The notes: generated by a model not told the origin, from the sequence alone. A DNA stretch of 14,789 nucleotides from Candidatus Electryonea clarkiae (GCA_030765455.1 JAVCCM010000093.1:1-14789), one strand, 5' to 3'. Positions 1-14,789 are shown, numbered from the stretch's first letter. Numbers and translations: made by a program.

Positions 1-105
1 TGAAATATCAAGGGAAAGTAAACAGGAGCCGTATACGTGAACCGTACGTACGGTTCTGTGAGAGGGATGAGGCGAAGTAGATCACTCCGCCTCACCCTAC
101 TCGAT
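1..105 (+). mobile_element. Group II intron 3' terminus (domain V, then a domain VI-like hairpin). The intron body and any IEP gene would lie upstream of the window.
   Basis: Positions 26-56, gAGCcguauacgugaaccguacguacgguuc, reproduce the canonical domain V flanks GAGCCGUAU / ACGUACGGUUC. They include the AGC catalytic triad, G-U wobbles and the 2-nt AC bulge (46-47). A GC-rich imperfect hairpin follows (about 63-100, gagggatgaggcg...cgcctcaccc) with an unpaired A, consistent with domain VI. The end coordinate is approximate. Confidence 0.5.
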
Positions 106-227
106 TGTTTTTGTGATGATTCAATCGTAGATATAGTGATTACACTTTGGATGAATCCGCCAAAGGTTGGACAAGCCAAACTTTGTTTTTGCGTATTCAA
201 TAGTTTTGATTCAGGATTTGAAGAACA

Positions 228-263
228 AACCATGTTTGAAATCAAACATGGCCACCCGCCGCC
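228..263. repeat. Direct repeat copy 1 (aaccatgtttgaaatcaaacatggccacccgccgcc). It contains the hairpin ccatgtttga-aa-tcaaacatgg. On the minus strand this reads as hairpin followed by tttgttctt, an intrinsic-terminator-like signal directly after the SIR2 stop.
   Basis: The 30-nt core is identical to 1936-1965. The 10-bp perfect stem is visible in the sequence. It abuts the stop codon of the SIR2 gene (263-265). Confidence 0.8.
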
Positions 264-1798
264 TATATTTGAAAAACCTCATCAATTATTTTATACTTTT
301 TTAAGTCATAAGCGCAAAGTAATTTTCTGTAATTAGTTCCTGTTTTAAGTGAATTGTTGAAATTTCTAAGGAATTCTTCCGTATCTCCTAAAGTGACCTT
401 GTTCTCCATGATTGACCACAATATTGCATTTGTTTTATTGCTTGTGGTTACAGAATCGTCCTCTATAATATCTTGAATTTTTGAGTGTGATGTTTTACAA
501 TTTTCATTAATTTTGCTAAAACTATTTTCAATATTTGAAGATTGTTGTTTTTGTAATTTCTGTATATTTTCTATTTCTGAACATATTTGACCAAATCCAT
601 AAACTGGAAAATATTGCGAACTGTGTATCGTGTGTTTATTGATGAGTGTTAGTAATTGAGAGTTAGATTCATCCAATATGTTGAAATAATTTGACATCAT
701 TTCAGAAGATGTTTGATATTGGTAGCTAATTGTTTTCATTGACCCAATTGCAATTATTTTGTCGCTATTTCTTAGCGTATCCAAGTCTTCTGTGATTTTA
801 ACTTTAATATCTCCGCCTGAATATATTTCTCTTACAATTCTTTGAACTTTGCGTACATCCATGGCAGAAACAGGAAGCGATAATTTAGATAATGATTTAT
901 AAATTTCAATAAAATCGTCCGTTTTTATTTTATTAATTCTTATAGTGGAAAATCCTTCGATATCAATATCATGTTCTGTTATTTCATGTGATAATGAATT
1001 CTTTTCAAATTCTACCAATAGGAAATTTGCTCTGATTCTTTGAGCCTCATCAGAATTAAACTCAACATAGGTGAATATAGTTTTCAACAAACTCTTTATG
1101 TTCTTATCTCCTATGCCATATCCCAAAAATATTATTGGGTTATGAATAAATATCGACAGTAGTTGAGCTCGTATTAATTCATATTTATTTTCAAACAAAT
1201 CATAATCATTTTCAGTTATTATAATTTTCGATGGTTGCGTTGTACAACCATGAATTTTGTAAACAGAACCATAAGGATTACTAAGTAGAATGTCATTACC
1301 AATCAAAGGATTGAATTTAAAAACATTCTTTACAAGAGAGTCATAGTTTGTTGTTATGATAGAACCAATATTTTTTCTTGTTTTTTTAAATTCTGCAATT
1401 TCATCTTTCATTTCTTCTTTAAAATCTAAACATGAATGGATATTTGATATATATATTTTAAACCGACTCAGATTAATTCCTTTGTTCATTTGATCATAAA
1501 AATAATCATTAACATCTTTAAATTTACCATTGCGATCTTTTACCAATGAATCGTTAAAATCGTGTTCTAACAATTGAGCTATTTTATCATATGCAAATAT
1601 TCCGTCGTCTTCACATCTAGACTTTATATCTAAATAATATTCAGAATTATCTTTCAATTCAACAGAGATATATTTTAGCAAGTTATCCCACGTATATGAA
1701 TTATTTAGATATCTTAAACTGATTCCAGTTCCTATGAACAGGACAGGATGATTTCTATATTTAGAAATGAAGTCATGAACATTCATTAATAATCCCAT
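263..1798 (-). CDS. SIR2-like (SIR2_2 / DHS-like NAD-binding) domain protein with an uncharacterised C-terminal domain of about 250 aa. Candidate NADase-type anti-phage defence protein, possibly ThsA-like.
   Basis: The 511-aa ORF has an N-terminal HPVLFIGTGISLRYLNNSYTWDNLLKYIS (the GAG-S / PsW-LL motif of the SIR2_2 family). It also has IITTNYDSLV (catalytic Asn motif), KIHGC (catalytic His) and IIFLGYGIGDKN. Total length and the N-terminal SIR2 plus C-terminal alpha/beta-like region resemble Thoeris ThsA (SIR2-SLOG). The C-terminal domain is not identified. Confidence 0.8.
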   Translation of the reverse strand: MGLLMNVHDFISKYRNHPVLFIGTGISLRYLNNSYTWDNLLKYISVELKDNSEYYLDIKSRCEDDGIFAYDKIAQLLEHDFNDSLVKDRNGKFKDVNDYFYDQMNKGINLSRFKIYISNIHSCLDFKEEMKDEIAEFKKTRKNIGSIITTNYDSLVKNVFKFNPLIGNDILLSNPYGSVYKIHGCTTQPSKIIITENDYDLFENKYELIRAQLLSIFIHNPIIFLGYGIGDKNIKSLLKTIFTYVEFNSDEAQRIRANFLLVEFEKNSLSHEITEHDIDIEGFSTIRINKIKTDDFIEIYKSLSKLSLPVSAMDVRKVQRIVREIYSGGDIKVKITEDLDTLRNSDKIIAIGSMKTISYQYQTSSEMMSNYFNILDESNSQLLTLINKHTIHSSQYFPVYGFGQICSEIENIQKLQKQQSSNIENSFSKINENCKTSHSKIQDIIEDDSVTTSNKTNAILWSIMENKVTLGDTEEFLRNFNNSLKTGTNYRKLLCAYDLKKYKIIDEVFQI

Positions 1799-1935
1799 TG
1801 AAAATTGATCCGTAAAAAATGCGGATTAATTGTTTCCCGTCAGACGAGTGACCCTGTTGGCACCATGCCTACGTTGGATCTCTCAACGTGGTTATATTGT
1901 TATATTCGATAACGTTGATCAAGATTTGTAGAATA

Positions 1936-1973
1936 AACCATGTTTGAAATCAAACATGGCCACCCTCCCGCCC
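1936..1973. repeat. Direct repeat copy 2 (aaccatgtttgaaatcaaacatggccaccctcccgccc), immediately followed by caggttatccca (1974-1985). On the minus strand it is a terminator-like hairpin followed by tttattcta, after the stop of the 186-aa gene.
   Basis: 30/30 identity to copy 1, then a near-identical GC tail. It lies 14 nt 3' of the stop of ORF 1987..2547. Confidence 0.8.
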
Positions 1974-1986
1974 AGGTTATCCCAGG

Positions 1987-2547
1987 CTATGTTACTTGAA
2001 ATATTTGATCGTAAAGATCATACAAATGTGTAGTACCTAATTCTTCTAAAGTTACACTGCTATTCCAATTTAATTCGTGATGATCAAATGATTCATCATT
2101 TATTATTGTGTATGTTTTACCGGGTAATTTCAGTTTATGAACAATGCCAAAGCGTTCCCATTTCGTAATAAAGCGATCATGGGACAAATTTAAATTATAT
2201 AATTCAGAAGTAGAAAAATTTTCAATCTTTGAGGAAAGTTTAAAAGATGGTGCGACAAATAGTATTATTTTTGGTTTCAAAATGAGATCATTATAACTGA
2301 TATTTACTATGTCTGCTCCCAAACTTTTTGCGTAAATATATGTATCTTCCTCTGATTCAACTCGATCATTATAGAATTTTTTAAAGGAATAACAAGCATA
2401 TTTCATCATTATATTTGATGGGATTCCGGACCACATAAATCGGTGACAACTAAATCCAAATGGTTCAAAATGTTCTGAGAGTGTTTTCATCCACATTAAG
2501 GTAGATTTTCGTACTATTGCTCCAGGAAGTATAATCAATTGACTCAT
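1987..2547 (-). CDS. Hypothetical 186-aa soluble protein with no recognisable domain. Translationally coupled to the upstream membrane protein.
   Basis: ORF with an ATGA start/stop overlap with 2544..3644. No signal peptide or TM segment. I see no TIR, Macro or nuclease motif with confidence. Confidence 0.6.
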   Translation of the reverse strand: MSQLIILPGAIVRKSTLMWMKTLSEHFEPFGFSCHRFMWSGIPSNIMMKYACYSFKKFYNDRVESEEDTYIYAKSLGADIVNISYNDLILKPKIILFVAPSFKLSSKIENFSTSELYNLNLSHDRFITKWERFGIVHKLKLPGKTYTIINDESFDHHELNWNSSVTLEELGTTHLYDLYDQIFQVT

Positions 2548-3644
2548 TTTAATACTTTTTGTTTAAATAATTCGGAAAGCAGACTTACTACGAAGGGGGA
2601 TAGTAAAGGTAGCAGAAGCATTGTGTAAACATTCGCAAATAGCTTGAATTCAAACAATCGGGAATCAGTTTTTTGCAGCCCCTCATAGATAGTAAAAAAT
2701 CCTTGGTTTTTCAAGGTTTGAATTCTTCCAACAAAGTCGGACGATTTTAAATCCAAGGTGTTTATTCCATATTTACTGAATGTTTCTTTAACTGCATCAT
2801 CTTTGAATCGATTGAGCAAAACCTTTATCGGTTTGAAATACATTAAAAGGATAATTGGACTTAGAAGGAAAAATCCAAAAATCATCATTAGTAACTCTGG
2901 ATCTCCAAATAAGGTTTCAAGAGAAAATGTATCTTCCCAATTAAGAAATATGATAAGAAAATAGAATCCAAATATTGAATATATCATTACAATCCTTTGT
3001 CCAAGTCTAATTAAATTTTCAAGACCACATTTTTCATCTGGGAATAGTAATTTTGGTACTAAAACTGATTTATTGCATATATTTCGAACGAATCTTGCGA
3101 AAAAAATCGTATCAATGATTAGAATAATTAAATGATATGCGATGATTGCAAAGATTACTGCGTAATACCAACCACATACTGTAGGATTTCCATCTATTAG
3201 ATGGACATAATTAACATCTGCATTTTGTCCACCAAGCTGGATGATAGTGAATAAAAATACTATTGCCACAACTTCGATGTTAGCAAATATTGAATATTTA
3301 AGAGAAACTATTTTTCCATACTTAGTTCTATTAGGAATATCTAAAATGCCATTTGTTTCAAGATCTCCAAATACTTTTGATGTATCTTTGTAAAAACGTG
3401 ATGCTTGGTAAAAAAGTGCAGGAATCAGAAGGGTTCCTCCTACTAAAATAGTCAAATGGTCAATCAGGGGTTTCTCAATTTCAGCACTTGGAAGTAATGT
3501 TCCTTCAAACATTGAGATTATTACCTGGATGATAAAAGTAAGAAAAAATACAATAAATGTTAAAAGCCAAGAGGAGGGAGATATGACAACTTTGTCATAT
3601 ATTGGTGATCTCAGGAAGCGTCCATTAAATACTTTTTCAGGCAT
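2544..3644 (-). CDS. Hypothetical polytopic inner-membrane protein (about 7-8 predicted TM helices), family unknown.
   Basis: The 366-aa ORF has multiple 20-25-residue hydrophobic stretches (e.g. SWLLTFIVFFLTFIIQVIISMF, IEVVAIVFLFTIIQLGG, YYAVIFAIIAYHLIILIIDTIFF, LLMMIFGFFLLSPIILLMYF, VYTMLLLPLLSPFVVSLLSELF). Its stop overlaps the start of the 186-aa gene (ATGA at 2544-2547). No Abi/CAAX or other motifs recognised. Confidence 0.65.
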   Translation of the reverse strand: MPEKVFNGRFLRSPIYDKVVISPSSWLLTFIVFFLTFIIQVIISMFEGTLLPSAEIEKPLIDHLTILVGGTLLIPALFYQASRFYKDTSKVFGDLETNGILDIPNRTKYGKIVSLKYSIFANIEVVAIVFLFTIIQLGGQNADVNYVHLIDGNPTVCGWYYAVIFAIIAYHLIILIIDTIFFARFVRNICNKSVLVPKLLFPDEKCGLENLIRLGQRIVMIYSIFGFYFLIIFLNWEDTFSLETLFGDPELLMMIFGFFLLSPIILLMYFKPIKVLLNRFKDDAVKETFSKYGINTLDLKSSDFVGRIQTLKNQGFFTIYEGLQKTDSRLFEFKLFANVYTMLLLPLLSPFVVSLLSELFKQKVLK

Positions 3645-3855
3645 TTTTATATTTCTTTACTCATATATTTTATACATAACATGTCTTCAGCGGATTGAGT
3701 GGTCATACATATAGGTGTTGGAATCATATTCCTACTATCCTATTCAGAAGATTCTGATGTAGCACCATCTTTTTCTAATCTACAACTGAATTATCTGGTA
3801 CACGGTTGCTCGATCAGACAATTGATTGTCTAGTTAATCAATCTTGTCAACTTTC

Positions 3856-4113
3856 CTAGTCTGGTGGACCTATATCTTTTCTCTCTACTTTATCGACTGT
3901 ATCTACCGATTGCATATTACCCGGTGTTTCTGGATGTTTTTGGGTGTCTTCCATTACCCAGTTGGGGAGATCGAGTCCTTCCAGGTTCCGGATATTCTTC
4001 AAGCCGGAGAAAGTACCCCATAAACCGTTAACGAATTCGGCAGTGTTAGTCTTGCCGCTATCCCTGTTGCCGCCAAGGTTATCCCATGCTTCATTCCTAT
4101 TTTTGTATCGCAT
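3856..4113 (-). pseudogene. Orphan C-terminal fragment of flotillin (a duplicate of the 3' end of the gene at 5602..7062).
   Basis: The translated fragment ...WDNLGGNRDSGKTNTAEFVNGLWGTFSGLKNIRNLEGLDLPNWVMEDTQKHP... aligns to residues about 407-460 of the intact flotillin (VVWDNLGGGRDSGKTNTAEFVNGLWGTFPGLKNVLNMVGLDLPNWVMEDTQKHP). There is no SPFH domain or TM segment. Homology starts abruptly at 4087. Confidence 0.75.
3932..4087. repeat. Imperfect direct repeat copy A (about 156 bp, about 88% identical to 5696-5851), derived from the flotillin 3' coding region. It ends in ccgccaaggttatccca.
   Basis: By-eye alignment shows the first about 41 nt identical, a diverged middle, a 31-nt identical block ataaaccgttaacgaattcggcagtgttagt, then an identical 18-nt end. 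Confidence 0.8.
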
Positions 4114-4534
4114 GTAAAATCTTCAATTTTATCTCTTCTGAATCGAACTTGCCATTGATCAAAGCTGTTATTATTTCCAACAGTAGATCTTTATCAATTC
4201 GACCTGCAGCGACATGGTAACTGATATTTTCCATTTCTCGAATAAAACTTCCAGCGATGAATAGATATCCATTAAGTAACAAAAATTGTGCCCCGAGGGA
4301 AATTGCTATTCTTTTATTTCCATCTTGAAAGCAGTGAAACTTGTTTGCCGAGTAAAACAAATGTGTAAGTTTCTCCTCGAAAGTAGAGTAATAAACGTCA
4401 TTCTGAATATGCTCAAGAACACTGTCCAGTAAGCCTATATCCATGAGGCCATCAGCACCTCCTCCACTAACCTCAACAGTTTTCTTATGAATCTCAACTG
4501 CCTGGTCGAGAGTGGGATAAATAATTCTCCTCAC
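4097..4534 (-). CDS. doc: Doc (death-on-curing) / Fic-family toxin.
   Basis: 145 aa. HCFQDGNKRIAISLGAQFLL matches the Doc Fic motif H-x-F-x-D-x-N-K-R (P1 Doc: HIFNDANKRTA). The N-terminal LDQAVEIHKKTVEVSGGGADGLMDIGLLDSVLEHIQ resembles the Doc N-terminus. There is a 4-bp overlap with the upstream gene. Confidence 0.8.
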   Translation of the reverse strand: MRRIIYPTLDQAVEIHKKTVEVSGGGADGLMDIGLLDSVLEHIQNDVYYSTFEEKLTHLFYSANKFHCFQDGNKRIAISLGAQFLLLNGYLFIAGSFIREMENISYHVAAGRIDKDLLLEIITALINGKFDSEEIKLKILHAIQK

Positions 4535-5550
4535 TCTCGTTCCTTCAATCGTTTGAATACATCTTTTGCCTCTTCAAGTCGTTCAGCAAGCTCTTTACTT
4601 TTTTCGCCAAGAAAACGCTCAAATTCATCGGATTGAAGCGGCGTGATATACTCCTTCAGTTGAAGATGTAATGCATCACGAAAAGCCAGATCGCGACTTG
4701 CCATCTTCTGCCGTGCTCGCTCGATGAGAGGCTTCCAGTGAGGTTGGGATTCAAATTCTGAGAATAGATGATCAACTTCCCAGGAGTCCAGTTTTCTATC
4801 TACCTTGTAAAATGCTTCCTCTAATGCTTTAGCAAACCCATATTCATACGATGAAATAAGATCAAGAATTTCGGAGTAAAACGTGTCTCGTACTTTTTCA
4901 TTTGCTTGTAATTTCAAAATATTGCGATACTCTTCAGCATTTTCACGGAATATACTTAGATAGATTTTATTCGTATAGATTGGGTACTTGATGTTTCCCA
5001 TATCTACAAAATCACGTAATGCGTCTGTAAACTCCTTACGGTAGTCTTCCTCCTGAAAATATGCTATGATGAAATCTTCATCGCGTTGGTTGATATATTT
5101 GGTGCCTCCGCCTGATTTTATATTGATTGTATCAATAACAATATCAAGTATTGTCTGTCGAAGCAGCCTGGCTCGTTCGCTTTCTGTTAGCAACATTGCT
5201 ATATTCAAAAATGCCCGGAAATTGAATGCCCCTAATCGTGTAGTTTTGGTAGGGACATTGATGTCCTTACCAAACTGTCCCTCTACAGCTAACATGAAGG
5301 TACTCAGCCGTTTCCCTCGAAGAACCACGTAACCGTTTTTTGTCAATTCATCGGAATATTTGCCGATATATCGATTCACGGTTCGAATGTCGATTTCAAA
5401 AAATGCAGCTACTTGCTCTCTTATAACCCAGTATGAATTTTCAAACTTGATGCCTTTGATCTCTACTGCATTTTGGATTTCTTTCAGGGCATAGGGATTA
5501 TTAAGAACATTTTGCCTGTCTATTTGTGATTGTGTAAGATTCTTATTCAT
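4531..5550 (-). CDS. RhuM-like (virulence protein RhuM family; ORF6N/KilA-N-type DNA-binding N-terminus) protein. Probable partner or antitoxin-like component for Doc.
   Basis: 339 aa. VIREQVAAFFEIDIRTVNRYIGKY resembles the RhuM-family motif (approximately LMAELFQKDVRTINEHLKNIY). The size is typical of RhuM (about 340 aa). It is translationally coupled (ATGA-type overlap at 4531-4534) to doc. The family assignment rests on recall of the family consensus, not on a search. Confidence 0.55.
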   Translation of the reverse strand: MNKNLTQSQIDRQNVLNNPYALKEIQNAVEIKGIKFENSYWVIREQVAAFFEIDIRTVNRYIGKYSDELTKNGYVVLRGKRLSTFMLAVEGQFGKDINVPTKTTRLGAFNFRAFLNIAMLLTESERARLLRQTILDIVIDTINIKSGGGTKYINQRDEDFIIAYFQEEDYRKEFTDALRDFVDMGNIKYPIYTNKIYLSIFRENAEEYRNILKLQANEKVRDTFYSEILDLISSYEYGFAKALEEAFYKVDRKLDSWEVDHLFSEFESQPHWKPLIERARQKMASRDLAFRDALHLQLKEYITPLQSDEFERFLGEKSKELAERLEEAKDVFKRLKERE

Positions 5551-5601
5551 TTAACTGTCTATCTGTTTTCTGAATAGAATTCTGAAAAAAACCTTCATAT
5601 C

Positions 5602-7062
5602 CTAGCTTTCCTCGTCCACTGTTTCAGATGAATGCATATTTTCTTTCTTCACTTCAGCTGGAGTATCCGCAGTTGCTGTTGTAGCTTGCGTAGCCGGATG
5701 TTTTTGGGTGTCTTCCATTACCCAGTTGGGGAGATCCAATCCTACCATGTTCAGGACATTTTTTAAGCCGGGGAAAGTACCCCATAAACCGTTAACGAAT
5801 TCGGCAGTGTTAGTTTTGCCGCTATCCCTGCCGCCGCCAAGGTTATCCCAGACTACGACATTACTCAGATCAAGACCCTGTACCGTATCACCTACAATTT
5901 TGGTTAAATCGGTGATCTTGTCGGCGATCATCAGTTGTACAGCGCGGTCAGGATCATTACCTGCGGCGTTGACGATCTCCTTCAAACCATTAGCTGTTTT
6001 TTCAAGGATTTCAAATGCACCGCGTCCCTGGGCTTCCATCTTGGCGAATATGGCGTCTGCTTCACCCTTCGCCTCACGGCGTAATTTCTCAGCTTCAGCT
6101 TCGGCAGCTATTTCGATCTTCTGTTTGTTGATTTCAGCCGGGACAACATCCTCTGCACGTTGACGGGCACGTTCCATATCGGCACGGGAATCCTCAGCTT
6201 TTTGCTCTGCCTGGAAGGCTTCCCTTTCGGCGTCAGCCTGCTTGGTACGTTCGGCGGCGTAACCAAGTCTCTCAGCTTCCGCGACCTTTTCACGACGTTG
6301 GGCGTTACTGTTTTCCTCGGTTACTTTGGCAACGTTTTCACCTGTCACCGCATCAGCGTTGGCACTGGCGACGTTGACGCGCTGATCACGTACAGCGTTG
6401 GCGCGTCCTACCTCACCATCACGTTCCTGCTCGGCGACTTTTATCTTCGCTTCGTTGATCGCGCGAGCCGCGGCTTCCTTACCAAGGGCTTCGATATATC
6501 CGCTTTCGTCCTTGATATCGGTGATATTCACATTGATCAGTTTCAAACCGATCTTTTTCAGCTCTGTTTCAACGCTCTGCGTGATATTCTGGACGAATTT
6601 ATCACGGTCAACATTGATTTCTTCGATTCTCATGGTAGCGATAACACTACGGAGCTGACCGAGGATGATCTCTTCAGCGAGGGCTTCAACCTGGGTGTGT
6701 TTCAGGCCGAGGAGACGTTCAGCGGCATTGCTCATTATCGCCAGGGTGGTGGAGATACCTACAGTGAACACCGAAGGAACGTCAACACGAATATTCTGCA
6801 AACTCAACGCTCCCCGAAGATTGATTCCAATCTGCATCGGGCTGAGGCTGAGGAACTGGTAAGACTGGATCAGTGGCCAGATGAATGCTGTTCCGCCATG
6901 AATGCATTGAGAGCTGCGTGACTCGCCGTCACTGCCCTTTCCGACCTTTCCGTAAACGACAAGTACCTGGTCACTCGGGCAGCGTTTTACCCGGCTTAAT
7001 GTGGCAATAAGTAAAGAAAATGCAAGAATAAAAATAACTACAAGTGCGGTTAAACCAATCAT
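5602..7062 (-). CDS. yqiK: Flotillin / SPFH (band 7) domain protein, YqiK-like.
   Basis: 486 aa. It has an N-terminal TM segment (LTALVVIFILAFSLLIATL) and an SPFH region. A long Ala/Glu/Lys/Arg-rich coiled-coil (AEAERLGYAAERTKQADAEREAFQAEQKAED...EAEAEKLRREAKGEADAI) is typical of flotillins. It sits downstream of an NfeD-like gene, as in yqiJ-yqiK. Confidence 0.85.
   Translation of the reverse strand: MIGLTALVVIFILAFSLLIATLSRVKRCPSDQVLVVYGKVGKGSDGESRSSQCIHGGTAFIWPLIQSYQFLSLSPMQIGINLRGALSLQNIRVDVPSVFTVGISTTLAIMSNAAERLLGLKHTQVEALAEEIILGQLRSVIATMRIEEINVDRDKFVQNITQSVETELKKIGLKLINVNITDIKDESGYIEALGKEAAARAINEAKIKVAEQERDGEVGRANAVRDQRVNVASANADAVTGENVAKVTEENSNAQRREKVAEAERLGYAAERTKQADAEREAFQAEQKAEDSRADMERARQRAEDVVPAEINKQKIEIAAEAEAEKLRREAKGEADAIFAKMEAQGRGAFEILEKTANGLKEIVNAAGNDPDRAVQLMIADKITDLTKIVGDTVQGLDLSNVVVWDNLGGGRDSGKTNTAEFVNGLWGTFPGLKNVLNMVGLDLPNWVMEDTQKHPATQATTATADTPAEVKKENMHSSETVDEES
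5696..5851. repeat. Imperfect direct repeat copy B (within the intact flotillin 3' coding region), ending in ccgccaaggttatccca.
   Basis: See copy A. The repeat encodes WDNLGGG...HP of the intact flotillin. Confidence 0.8.
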
Positions 7063-11228: not shown

Positions 11229-12401
11229 CTAAAAAGAAATACCAAATTCAATCCATTCAGTATTAGTTACAGGGTGACCTTCGCCTGCATCCCAAAATGA
11301 TTTTGAATAATTGATATTCGTCCTTGTCATTATTAATTTGTAAAACTTTCCGTAAGATTTCCCCTGTTTTTGTGATCTGGTATATAGATAATTTGTTATT
11401 CCATTGCTCTTGATTGTGAAACCAGAGGTGGCGTTGAAGAGTGATCCCCAGGTATCATAGTAATTACCCCATCTGTATAAAAACGAATTAAAGAAATTGA
11501 CCTCGCGTCCTACACCTCCGGTGTTTATCCACTCTTTGCTAACATTGTGTACTTTTTGTTTGTTGAAATCCTGTGCATATATAAATGAGAATAGATGGTA
11601 ATCCGGCAGCTCACAGCGAAACTCAAGTCCATATCCCTTTCGTTTTATCGCTGGAAGTGGAACATTATATTGTAAATCACAGCCCAAATTTGAGTTTGAA
11701 TAACCGTAACTTGGAATGATATCGACCCTAAAAGGTTTTATTGATTCCAGCGGTTTATAATTAAATACTTCAGTGAGTGCATTGTTTAGCGGTAAACGAA
11801 AAAGGACACCCCAATCATATGCTTCAGCGCTTTGATCATTTTCTTCGTAAGAATGAAAATCCGCCCGGTGTAATTTGATTGCGTCAGATTTGTATCCCAC
11901 TCCCATTTCGATGAAATGTCGTAATCCGACAGACAAGGCATAGGATTCATTTTTATCCCAAGGTTCAATCTGGTAAATAAGATCCCCTTCATTATTCCAG
12001 ACTTCAACTCTACCGAGATTTAAAAAGCTTCGGGAATATTCAATCCCGATTGAAATCTGCCTTGTTCTCTCACCTTCCTCTTTATAGAAAGTCCAGCCAG
12101 CAAATAAGCTTGTATAATTAAAATAGAGGTCGTCTATCTTAAATGCTGGCAAATAATCAACATAAGAATGTGATGCTGCAAAGTTGTGGTCAAGGCTGAA
12201 TATTCCCATACTTCCGGGATTAAAATGACCTGACATTGGATCAACCAGCGCAGTTTGAGCTTCACCCATACCTGTTGCCCTGGCGCCAGGTGAAATGAGT
12301 AAAAAGAAAGGAGCAGTCTCATTGATATGGGTTTCTCCATTGGATACAATCGGGAGGAGTGTAATCAGGGTAATCAAGAAAAGAAGATAACCGTACCTCA
12401 T
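11229..12401 (-). CDS. Outer-membrane beta-barrel protein, FadL/PorV-like (PorV/PorQ-type), paralog 1.
   Basis: Signal peptide from M at 12401 (MRYGYLLFLITLITLLPIVSNG; the longer ORF to 12470 is probably not used). An N-terminal motif PGARATGMGEAQTALVDPMSGHFNPG resembles the FadL-family plug motif (sARalGMGgA..A.aDD.sA...NPAg). An aromatic-rich beta-strand pattern, and a C-terminal ...WIEFGISF with a terminal Phe (OMP signature). About 60-65% identical to paralog 2. Confidence 0.7.
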   Translation of the reverse strand: MRYGYLLFLITLITLLPIVSNGETHINETAPFFLLISPGARATGMGEAQTALVDPMSGHFNPGSMGIFSLDHNFAASHSYVDYLPAFKIDDLYFNYTSLFAGWTFYKEEGERTRQISIGIEYSRSFLNLGRVEVWNNEGDLIYQIEPWDKNESYALSVGLRHFIEMGVGYKSDAIKLHRADFHSYEENDQSAEAYDWGVLFRLPLNNALTEVFNYKPLESIKPFRVDIIPSYGYSNSNLGCDLQYNVPLPAIKRKGYGLEFRCELPDYHLFSFIYAQDFNKQKVHNVSKEWINTGGVGREVNFFNSFLYRWGNYYDTWGSLFNATSGFTIKSNGITNYLYTRSQKQGKSYGKFYKLIMTRTNINYSKSFWDAGEGHPVTNTEWIEFGISF

Positions 12402-12561
12402 AAAAGACAAGATATCTATATCTTTTCGAAGATTTTGAAGAGTAATCAATCTAATAGAATCATTAAGCATTTTACAGTCTTTCCTTGGTTAACTTTTACT
12501 TAAGCGGTTCACTTTGCTAAATTAATCTTATGTGTTAGGGTTTAGATATGAAACCAGCCAG

Positions 12562-13749
12562 TTAAAATGAAATACCAAGTTCTATCCATTCAGTATCAGT
12601 TAAAGGCTGACCTTCGCCTGCGTGAAATAATGATCTGGAATATTTAAAATTCATGCGAGTCATCACGAAATCATACAACTCGCCTTTAGCCCATTCCTGG
12701 TGTTGAGAACTAAGGTGAATGATTTTTAATATTCCGCTACTTTGAAAAGTGAAACCGGTTGTTGATCGTGAAGCTCGTCCCCAGGTGTCATAATAGTTAC
12801 CCCAACGATATATGAAAGAATCGAAGAAAGTAATTTCACGACCTACACCGGATGTTTCTATCCATTCTTTACTCCTGAGATCGGCTCTATCCCTATTAAT
12901 ATCATGAGCATAAATGAAGCCAAGCAACGGAACAACCGGTAGGTCAAAACGAAATTCAAGGGCATACCCACTGCGATGCACTTCCGGGAGAGGATCATCA
13001 TACATCTCATCCCCGCCCAGATTTGATTTTGAAAATCCATAACTTGGGATGAAATCGATTAAGAAGGGATATATTGATTCAGACACATCGTAATGGAGTC
13101 CCTCTTTTAATACAGTATTCGTGGGCAGGCGGATCAATATTCCCCAGTCATAAGCTTTGGCGTTCACTTCATCATCATATTCAGGATTACCAATATTAGA
13201 AAACTCGCTCAGATGGCTCGTGATGTAATTCAATTTATAGCCGATTCCCACTTCAGCCAGGTAGCGAAAACCGATAGAAACGCCGTAAGAGTAATTGTTC
13301 TCCCACGATTCAAAAGAACCTAGGTCTTCGTTGTTTTCACCCCTGCGTTCGGTTTTCCCAAGGTTCAGAAATCGCCTTGTCACTTCAATTCCACCAGATA
13401 TTTCGAGGGGATTATCAGGTTGCTTTTCATACAACTTCCATCCGGCAGATAATTGAGAATAGTTGAGATATAAATCATCTAAATTAAACCTAGGCAACCA
13501 GTCAGCACTGGTATAAGAGTATGAATAATTATGATCAAGACTGAATACACCTTTACTTCCGGCATTAAAGTGCCCCGACATGGGATCGACCAATGCCACC
13601 TGTGCGTCACCCATACCTGTCGCCCTGGCACCCGGAGTTATCAACATAAAACGGGCACTGGCAGCATTAGCGTGATTGTTTGAAAATAATAGAAACAGCA
13701 GAAGAATAAAAATTAATGATCTGGTACTATCGTTTGTGAATATTTTCAT
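12562..13749 (-). CDS. Outer-membrane beta-barrel protein, FadL/PorV-like, paralog 2.
   Basis: A clear signal peptide MKIFTNDSTRSLIFILLLFLLFSNNHANA, PGARATGMGDAQVALVDPMSGHFNAG, and C-terminal WIELGISF. Confidence 0.75.
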   Translation of the reverse strand: MKIFTNDSTRSLIFILLLFLLFSNNHANAASARFMLITPGARATGMGDAQVALVDPMSGHFNAGSKGVFSLDHNYSYSYTSADWLPRFNLDDLYLNYSQLSAGWKLYEKQPDNPLEISGGIEVTRRFLNLGKTERRGENNEDLGSFESWENNYSYGVSIGFRYLAEVGIGYKLNYITSHLSEFSNIGNPEYDDEVNAKAYDWGILIRLPTNTVLKEGLHYDVSESIYPFLIDFIPSYGFSKSNLGGDEMYDDPLPEVHRSGYALEFRFDLPVVPLLGFIYAHDINRDRADLRSKEWIETSGVGREITFFDSFIYRWGNYYDTWGRASRSTTGFTFQSSGILKIIHLSSQHQEWAKGELYDFVMTRMNFKYSRSLFHAGEGQPLTDTEWIELGISF

Positions 13750-13776
13750 ATTATCTCCCGATATTGAGTCAAAAAA

Positions 13777-14789
13777 TTAAAATGAAATACCAAGTTCTAT
13801 CCAAGCGGAATCAGATATATCATAATTGCTGCCTGCTTTCCAGAATGACCTGGAATATTTGAAATTCAGCCGGTTCATTACAAAATTGTACAATTCGCCT
13901 TCAGCCCATTCCTGATCCTGCGTGGCGAGATGAATTATTTTTAGTATTCCTTTACTTTGCAGTGAATAACCCGTTGTGGACTTGAAAAGGTGTCCCTCGG
14001 TGTCATAATAATTACCCCAGCGATAGACGAATGAATCAAAAAACGAGAACTCCCTGCCAACGCCCCCGGTTTTGTATCCATTATCTCCTGAAGGGATGTC
14101 ATACCTGATATCGTTATCTCCTGAAGGGATGTCATACCTGATATCGTTAAAATCCTGGGTGTATATAAAAGCAAGCAAAGGCACAACCGGCAGATCAATT
14201 CGAAATTCCAAAGCATAACCTCTTCGATTTATTTCCGGGAGAGGTTGTCCATATACTTTATTGTCTCCCAGGTTAGAATTCGAATAGCCAAAACTTGGAA
14301 TAATATCAATAGTGAAAGGGTCAATTAACCTTTGAGTATTTATATTATACACCTCTTTCAGTGCATTATTTATCGGCAACCTTAACAGGATACCCCAATC
14401 ATATGCTCTCGCATTACGATCATTCCCGGAATTTGGAAAATTGCTTCCCAAATGTGATGTAATAAAATCAGTTTTGTAACCGATTCCCAACTCGGCGATA
14501 TACCGCAATCCAATCGAAACTCCATAAGTGTAATTCCGCTCCCATAAATTTCCAGTACTAATGATTCCATATAAATCATCTCGCACTACATACTCACCTT
14601 CATCAATAAATCTTTTTGTAACTTCCAGTCCGCCTGATATTTCCAGAGGATATCCAATCCTCTTATTATGTGTGCCCAGCATGGAGTGGACGCCTGATTT
14701 TGTTAATACACCCCGATCTGGGGGAAGTAAAACCGATTGGCAAGGGCGTTGCTGGCAACGGCAGGGTCTGAAGGCAGCCATAGGCAGCA
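13777..14789 (-). CDS. Outer-membrane beta-barrel protein paralog 3, 5'-incomplete or N-terminally replaced (open to the window edge).
   Basis: Homology to paralog 2 runs from about residue 43 (YPLEISGG; about 14655 downward) to the C-terminal WIELGISF. The region 14660-14789 is unrelated to the paralog N-termini (no signal peptide, no PGARATGMG motif) and the frame stays open to the end of the window. It contains an in-frame 33-bp tandem duplication. Confidence 0.6.
   Translation of the reverse strand, partial: LPMAAFRPCRCQQRPCQSVLLPPDRGVLTKSGVHSMLGTHNKRIGYPLEISGGLEVTKRFIDEGEYVVRDDLYGIISTGNLWERNYTYGVSIGLRYIAELGIGYKTDFITSHLGSNFPNSGNDRNARAYDWGILLRLPINNALKEVYNINTQRLIDPFTIDIIPSFGYSNSNLGDNKVYGQPLPEINRRGYALEFRIDLPVVPLLAFIYTQDFNDIRYDIPSGDNDIRYDIPSGDNGYKTGGVGREFSFFDSFVYRWGNYYDTEGHLFKSTTGYSLQSKGILKIIHLATQDQEWAEGELYNFVMNRLNFKYSRSFWKAGSNYDISDSAWIELGISF
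14081..14146. repeat. Perfect 33-bp tandem duplication (2 copies of ttatctcctgaagggatgtcatacctgatatcg), in frame within paralog 3, encoding DIRYDIPSGDN twice.
   Basis: Copy 1 is 14081-14113 and copy 2 is 14114-14146, identical at all 33 positions. The protein shows FNDIRYDIPSGDNDIRYDIPSGDNGYK, in a segment that is variable between paralogs. Confidence 0.9.

Follow-up and report, generated by a model that had tools for sequence, protein, structure and literature searches.

Candidate stacked insertions of compact gene cassettes near the 3' end of a flotillin gene in Candidatus Electryonea clarkiae

The 3' coding end of a flotillin gene in Candidatus Electryonea clarkiae is present twice, and the 17-nucleotide (nt) core at which the duplicated sequence begins, TGGGATAACCTTGGCGG, is found a third time farther downstream. 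The copies are separated by two sets of unrelated genes, and the flotillin gene itself is intact. The sequence investigated here, referred to as the window, is the whole stretch of 14,789 nt (GCA_030765455.1 JAVCCM010000093.1:1-14789), which is nearly all of a 14,833-nt metagenome contig from a short-read assembly (ENA ERZ27315495, k141_363495). In NCBI its proteins carry the name of a metagenome-assembled genome of this species, which was described from Ace Lake, Antarctica (PMC9324843) and belongs to the phylum Ca. Electryoneota of the FCB group. This phylum is barely sampled and nearly unstudied. We give roughly even credence to the locus being an additive genomic island, formed by repeated insertion at an attachment-like site near the flotillin end. 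An initial annotation of this DNA had proposed at least two successive insertions at one site; the repeats, the junctions and the foreign cargo agree with this, no recombinase is present on the contig, and site-specific recombination is how we would interpret the junctions.

The two flotillin 3' ends are identical at 143 of 156 nt (91.7%; 5695–5850 and 3931–4086), which substantiates the duplication that had been annotated, at a higher identity than the approximately 88% then given; the count is the same at 5696–5851 and 3932–4087. Within this block there are perfect runs of about 40 nt. A repeat search aligned 215 nt at 81% (3872–4086 and 5636–5850), and beyond the 156-nt block a weaker homology (3856–3930 and 5620–5694, 38/75, 50.7%) continues up to the stop codon of the downstream, orphan copy. 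On the far, upstream side of the core the identity drops to 7 of 20 bases, as abruptly as the initial annotation had stated. Homology runs from the core towards the 3' end only, a pattern shared with elements that insert at the 3' ends of tRNA genes or protein-coding genes.

As read on the plus strand the core is the 17-mer CCGCCAAGGTTATCCCA, which occurs exactly at 4070–4086 and 5834–5850 and with one mismatch at 1968–1984. On the minus strand it encodes WDNLGG, about 80 codons before the end of flotillin. Three matches compare with 0.01 expected, and none of 200 shuffles reaches three (0/200), so the earlier view that recurrence by chance is unlikely holds for the 17-mer. That view had been based on an identical 12-mer present three times, the third at 1974–1985. 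The recurrence stands; the third position is 1973–1984, which is the only exact occurrence of CAGGTTATCCCA, the other two being AAGGTTATCCCA with 11/12 bases shared. A further one-mismatch 12-mer, CAAGTTATCCCA, lies at 1679–1690 inside a SIR2-domain gene, where it codes for the WDNL of TWDNLL near the N-terminus; we judged this to be an unrelated coding coincidence and not a fourth junction.

All genes of the array, as well as flotillin and the NfeD-like gene beside it, are on the minus strand, such that all of the cargo is co-oriented with flotillin. Along the reading direction of flotillin, its body is followed by core 1, 3' end B, a 51-nt spacer, M59A, Doc and 10 nt; then core 2, 3' end A, a 211-nt spacer, a 366-aa (amino acid) gene, a 186-aa gene and 2 nt; then core 3, a hairpin unit, the SIR2 gene, 0 nt and another hairpin unit. 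The period from core to core is 1764 nt for cassette X (PDC-M59A and Doc) and 2102 nt for cassette Y (the 366-aa and 186-aa genes). The features of the two cassettes and their target are as follows:

5602–7062, minus strand: flotillin (SPFH/Band 7), intact, 486 aa, the target gene (Pfam PF01145 Band_7, E=7e-30)
5834–5850, minus strand: core 1, TGGGATAACCTTGGCGG (WDNLGG), inside the intact flotillin, joining the flotillin body to 3' end B
5602–5833, minus strand: 3' end B, the functional flotillin end, which may have arrived with cassette X; conserved P, L and V kept
4097–5550, minus strand: cassette X cargo, PDC-M59A (339 aa, 4531–5550) and the Doc/Fic toxin PDC-M59B (145 aa, 4097–4534)
4070–4086, minus strand: core 2, an exact copy, 10 nt past the Doc stop codon
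3856–4069, minus strand: 3' end A, the displaced orphan end, within a called 85-aa open reading frame (ORF; 3856–4113)
1987–3644, minus strand: cassette Y cargo, a 366-aa multi-pass membrane ORFan (2544–3644) and a 186-aa protein (1987–2547)
1968–1984, minus strand: core 3, TGGGATAACCTGGGCGG, one mismatch, 2 nt past the stop codon of the 186-aa gene and fused to a hairpin repeat

The two unrelated sets of cargo stop 10 and 2 nt ahead of the same core base. Because two unrelated cassettes and a remnant all begin at this base, a fixed site is favoured; random capture would have varied. The resemblance to insertion into the 3' end of a gene, which the initial annotation had recognized, is strengthened by this and by the difference between the intact gene-proximal copy and the displaced copy. 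Flotillin is full length at 486 aa (472–538 aa in relatives), and in an alignment with the C-termini of five relatives end B retains the conserved P27, L33 and V36. End A differs radically at these positions, with S, R and E (P>S, L>R, V>E) against P, L/F and V in all of the relatives. Since S, R and E replace conserved residues, end A is considered to be a displaced copy under relaxed constraint.

The GC (guanine and cytosine) content is 50% in flotillin and 47–48% in both 3' ends (47.8% for end B including core 1, 5602–5850), compared to 37–39% in M59A and Doc, 30–31% in the 366-aa and 186-aa genes and 27.6% in the SIR2 gene. At 28–39% GC against the 50% of flotillin, the cargo is compositionally foreign. 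Each cassette is almost wholly coding, with only about 50–210 nt of non-coding DNA, and the cargo is probably read through from upstream.

Much of this cargo resembles candidate defence systems. PADLOC profiles were matched over their full length by M59A (E=2e-107), M59B (E=6e-41) and the SIR2 gene (PDC-S25, E=4e-159). The Doc gene also matches Pfam Fic and NCBIfam DOC_P1, and the SIR2 gene Pfam SIR2_2 (E=2e-19). The cargo of cassette X had been labelled RhuM-Doc, yet the first gene has no Pfam match, its Ilyobacter homologue is annotated 'DNA-binding protein' and the pair corresponds to the PADLOC candidates PDC-M59A/B. The M59A-Doc pair forms a self-contained module in nine loci of viral collections, at 48–67% identity. 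Its closest isolate homologue, with 67% identity in M59A, is on the Ilyobacter polytropus megaplasmid pILYOP01 (L122, 124580–137596), where the pair directly follows a type III restriction-modification system; this context supports a defence-island role for the module. Neither flotillin nor flanking gene-end repeats are present beside the pair in the nine viral loci or at the Ilyobacter locus. The cassette Y proteins of 366 and 186 aa have no Pfam, NCBIfam or PADLOC match, and a search of 5.8e9 proteins with the 366-aa membrane protein retrieved no sequence other than the query. When NfeD, CheX, M59A, Doc and the 186-aa protein were looked up by exact match, nothing came back beyond this contig and short contigs of the same strain.

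Is a second 3' end a common property of flotillin genes? None was found in 80 other flotillin loci, queried with the flotillin of the window or with each locus's own tail, which rules out a general tendency of flotillin to have a duplicated 3' end. The 17-mer is likewise in none of these 80 loci, so it is not a common coding form of flotillin, and the concern that the junction might be a frequent coding motif is not borne out. Alignment with related genomes had been suggested as a way of finding an uninterrupted flotillin. Distant relatives, at 50–79% flotillin identity, do have a single 3' end and no island; the best match in a search of 5.8e9 proteins is only 79% identical. In that relative (L002) flotillin is followed by a hairpin terminator of the form GGCC-stem-CTTG-stem-GGTTT. 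L126, also among the closest relatives with downstream sequence, has only one flotillin 3' end, and no defence cargo was recognised behind it. A relative at 71% identity has a hairpin of the H1 family, described below, about 140 nt past the flotillin stop codon, and because the 79% and 71% relatives both show a hairpin after flotillin, the ancestral layout is taken to be flotillin, stop codon, spacer, hairpin. The orphan 3' end found only itself in a word-index search; a HMMER search of 1.84e9 representatives returned itself and two unrelated long proteins, the query being too short to be informative. The 17-mer had also been proposed as a probe for island borders elsewhere, and its 20 single matches, all in viral contigs, are unrelated, none being near flotillin ends or cargo.

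In the 71% relative, three independent assemblies (NCBI, ENA and JGI) break 50–175 nt past the flotillin stop codon: L123 (10306–10482) and L124 (2109–2281) after about 175 nt, just past the H1-family hairpin, and L125 (1674–1724) after about 50 nt. These shared breaks may reflect a repeat, or variation between strains, in the region behind flotillin in that organism as well.

The third core differs from the other two in what follows it. It had been listed as a further core; it is no clean copy of the attachment sequence but a flotillin remnant of about 22 nt, fused to a dispersed hairpin repeat. The presence of this repeat beside the junction was correctly reported, 50 nt of it (211–260 and 1919–1968) being 92% identical between its two window copies. 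The features in this part of the window are:

1855–1967, minus strand: hairpin unit, short form, with hairpins H1 (1919–1968, stem CCATGTTTG/CAAACATGG) and H2 (about 1859–1899, CCACGTTGA..CCAACGT)
263–1798, minus strand: SIR2-domain gene, 511 aa, PADLOC candidate PDC-S25, flanked by hairpin units and not by flotillin ends
104–262, minus strand: second hairpin unit (H1 at 211–262 and a spacer), beginning with GCGGCGGGTGG at the SIR2 stop codon and cut at about 105 by an intron
24–105, plus strand: 3' end of a group II intron, which runs off the contig (Rfam RF00029, 48.1 bits against a gathering threshold of 40, E=3e-7)

A scan of public metagenome contigs with a 22-nt hairpin identified three other contigs (L091–L093). 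The units there begin GGCGGGTGG-CCATGTTTG-ATTT-CAAACATGG-TTT, directly past the stop codons of co-oriented genes, and many have a second hairpin, CCACGTTGG-GCGAG-CCAACGTGG, about 100 nt further on. Family members with differing stems stay paired and the GGGTGG flank is constant. The hairpin units fold better than shuffles (z about -3.2), one window unit was caught by a terminator scan, and the terminator-like unit at 104–262 is 83–87% identical over 157 nt to two L092 units. Dispersed, extragenic and palindromic, the H1/H2 units (two in the window, three in L091, others in L092 and L093) have the features of repetitive extragenic palindromic (REP)-like or terminator-like elements. Their G-rich start (GGCGGGTGG) is similar to the right half of the flotillin core. 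As for the left half of core 3, TGGGATAACCT, no other hairpin unit contains it, and for this reason core 3 is regarded as genuine flotillin sequence over about 22 nt, joined to a hairpin unit. It may be what is left of the original 3' end, its body having been deleted down to the terminator, and the hairpin behind flotillin in the 71% relative fits such a fusion.

In the window (104–262 and 1855–1968) and in these contigs the units are 55–190 nt in length, with two hairpins (H1 and H2) behind the constant GGCGGGTGG flank, and lie between co-oriented unrelated genes (L092 880–957, 1903–1957, 2729–2940, 5848–6035 and 6609–6663; L093 3913–3978; L091 about 1455–1671). Seven genes within 7 kb of L092 are set apart by them in what resembles a cassette array, and the SIR2 cassette of the window is bounded by hairpin units as the L092 genes are. 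The ends of the SIR2 gene (263–283) and the 186-aa gene (1987–2010, minus strand) are alike, ..DEVFQI* and ..DQIFQVT*, with approximately 76% DNA identity over 21 nt, which may be chance or the trace of a shared cassette end.

How might such an array have been assembled? On the additive-island reading, the incoming unit would be the equivalent of a circle of approximately 1.8–2.1 kb, in which the core and a replacement end for flotillin accompany one promoter-poor defence module of the same orientation as flotillin. The unit would be spliced in by recombination at the core, with the incoming 3' end completing flotillin and the previous end being pushed downstream as an orphan. The ancestral state would have been flotillin with its stop codon, a short spacer and a terminator-like hairpin. 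Cassette Y, with 3' end A and the 366-aa and 186-aa genes, would have inserted first. The displaced original end would then have been deleted from its GGCGG..GGG to the similar G-rich start of the hairpin, fusing core 3 to the hairpin. Cassette X, with 3' end B, PDC-M59A and Doc, would have inserted last, at the gene-proximal core. The recombinase would be off the contig, supplied in trans or from elsewhere in the genome, and the cassettes would behave like cis-mobilizable elements.

Integrative elements and cis-mobilizable elements (CIMEs), among them integrase-less units with attL and attR, have been described as accumulating in tandem where a target gene ends (PMC5704250). The locus is an example of this known structure, the tandem accretion of integrase-less islands; new are the flotillin target and the poorly known phylum. 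Direct repeats of the 3' part of the target bound each unit (three cores and the 156-nt block), the target is kept intact by a replacement 3' end (the 486-aa flotillin) and, by the published definition of a CIME, cassettes X and Y have attL and attR without integration or transfer genes (PMC5704250). The same direct repeats, intact target, stacking at one site and lack of integration and transfer genes are seen in accretion of the streptococcal ICESt1/ICESt3 type (PMC5704250). Unlike these, there is no integrase-bearing partner visible here, the units, at 1.8–2.1 kb, are nearly all coding and free of decayed mobility genes, flotillin is the target and the repeat, of at least 156 nt, is only 92% identical. 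The ssrA islands of Dehalococcoides are similar in that many islands, whose niche-specific cargo drives strain diversity, are stacked at one conserved gene (PMC3146451). They differ in that about half of them (16/31) have a syntenic integration module beside the site, and in that their target is the tmRNA gene, whereas here it is protein-coding. In the tycheposons of Prochlorococcus, successive integrations at the same site push older elements inward and leave partial tRNA copies between them (bioRxiv 10.1101/2020.12.28.424599). These arrays share displaced partial copies of the target and cargo that includes defence genes with the flotillin locus, but have tyrosine recombinases and tRNA targets, in contrast to a protein-coding target with no recombinase seen.

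Defence genes accumulate at fixed chromosomal hotspots without mobility genes, and this locus is a compact example. Should there be a trans-acting recombinase, minimal cassettes that restore the gene into which they insert could be what fills defence hotspots; should there be none, the locus would be a worked example of cassette stacking driven by homology. Either way, the flotillin 3' end is an insertion site worth seeking in related genomes.

Several observations weigh against stacked site-specific insertions. There is no integrase or other recombinase among the ORFs and Pfam matches of the 14.8-kb contig, in or beside the array or elsewhere, which extends to the whole contig the statement of the initial annotation that none is visible. 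A search beyond the left edge had been recommended; there are only 29 more nt in that direction and these are group II intron sequence. The cassettes contain no pseudogene remnants or other decayed mobility genes, which the usual origin of a CIME, by decay from an integrative and conjugative element or an integrative and mobilizable element, would predict. The core is without obvious inverted repeats of the recombinase type. Neither an empty site nor an alternative filling nor a circular junction was observed among flotillins at most 79% identical, and there is a single locus only. Divergence between the two 3' ends is mosaic: in the first 156 nt it amounts to 8%, in the adjoining 75 nt to 49% (Fisher p=7e-12), and third codon positions differ at 5/52 in the former segment and 14/25 in the latter (p=2.5e-5). 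Such a pattern points to identity shared over a long block, of the kind that att repeats have, or else to gene conversion, and one or the other is an extra assumption that the mosaic ends require.

An alternative needs no integrase: circles with a captured flotillin 3' end and a defence module would insert by a single RecA-type (Campbell) crossover, or the units would enter by long target duplication. We hold it tentatively; such integrase-free routes are about half as likely as the site-specific account. Once direct repeats are present, recombination between them could excise one-repeat circles that re-insert in other cells. The topology that results from these routes matches that of site-specific integration. 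A 156-nt block of 91.7% identity with perfect runs of about 40 nt is enough for homologous recombination. Beyond codon 52 identity falls sharply, which resembles the end of a homology block or conversion tract, no recombinase is visible and the cargo consists of candidate defence genes. 'Insertion with long target duplication' has reportedly been proposed by the Kobayashi group for restriction-modification units, and this too places a defence module within long target repeats without mobility genes. Such a duplication is said to copy the resident target, so that fresh repeats are identical over their whole length. In contrast, the copies here are mosaic, without the even divergence that would follow (8% against 49%), although gene conversion could mask this, and the same junction has been used at least twice. 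For homology-driven routes in general, the three junctions start at the same base, which independent captures would not do unless there was one founding event, and the third copy, at only about 22 nt, is too short to serve as a homology arm.

A doubtful extension of the additive-island reading is that the locus belongs to a true cassette system of this candidate phylum, in which integrase-less defence cassettes use the 3' end of a housekeeping gene instead of attC, with the recombinase elsewhere, read-through from the flotillin promoter and H1/H2 perhaps as alternative sites. It is improbable that the locus is an integron-like array, with H1/H2 units as cassette recombination sites and the flotillin core as a secondary site of the same recombinase. 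The seven co-oriented unrelated genes of L092 separated by H1/H2 units at 83–87% identity, the SIR2 gene bounded by such units, the hybrid nature of core 3 (flotillin and H1), the folding of the units with their differing but paired stems, and the group II intron inside one of them all speak for it; group II introns have been reported to insert at integron attC sites. As with integron cassettes, the flotillin cassettes are small, compact, promoter-poor, co-oriented and stacked behind one site. They differ in that there is no IntI integrase on the contig and nothing that corresponds to attI or Pc, the junctions have no GTTRRRY/RYYYAAC boxes (the junction reads GTTATCC), there is no attC-type fold, and the repeat is a coding 3' end that heads each cassette. 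Moreover, the two ends of the hairpin unit do not pair with each other, L092 includes housekeeping-type genes, and in relatives hairpins of a similar kind stand behind flotillin as ordinary terminators. The flotillin 3' ends themselves were considered as attC-like folded sites and rejected, as their folding is not better than that of shuffled sequences (z 0.2 and 0.7).

Equally improbable is a local tandem duplication of the flotillin 3' region, with replacement of the intervening sequence and partial gene conversion, and no mobile cassettes. Both copies have the GC content of the host gene, and the departures of the orphan from conserved residues would fit decay after duplication. However, the strongly non-uniform divergence, also at third codon positions, is unlike neutral decay, two different low-GC foreign modules end at the same junction and a third copy of the core is present.

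That the structure is an artefact of assembly, or a coding motif recurring by chance, is very improbable: the assembly is from short reads and WDNL also occurs in the SIR2 gene, yet the shuffles and the 80 flotillin loci stand against chance, and since two junctions recur in independent assemblies of another sample (Doc to core 2 to orphan end in L099 at 99.9%, and the 186-aa gene to core 3 to hairpin in L121 at 100%) the structure is not an assembly error.

The gene upstream of flotillin is part of the core genome. It has no Pfam match, and a 209-aa gene is present in the same place in L002, where the ORF translations are visibly alike, and in L123/L124:

7301–7897, minus strand: NfeD-like membrane protein gene, core genome, an ORF directly upstream of flotillin

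No tRNA or tmRNA targets were found in the window. At its left edge, the 3' end of the group II intron (24–105, plus strand; domains V–VI by reading) interrupts the hairpin unit just before the place of the second hairpin in L092, and probably explains why the contig ends here. Class C introns target terminators, with a hairpin and T run upstream of the insertion point on the intron strand. Seen on the intron strand of the window, the insertion point would have that second hairpin and its T run on its upstream side.

At the other edge, window positions 14666–14773 (and on to 14789) correspond to positions 1–108 of L092, an unrelated metagenome contig, with 100% identity over 108 nt. Past these 108 nt the window continues into a 5'-truncated porin-like paralogue and L092 into an H2 hairpin, and the contig ends are within 16 nt of each other. 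The shared sequence has no Rfam match and is probably the end of a multicopy mobile element. Three tandem paralogous genes of 413, 395 and 334 aa, with DNA segments 60–75% identical and no Pfam family, occupy 11229–14781 on the minus strand. The third paralogue is without its N-terminal part and has within it a perfect 33-nt tandem duplication at 14081–14146.

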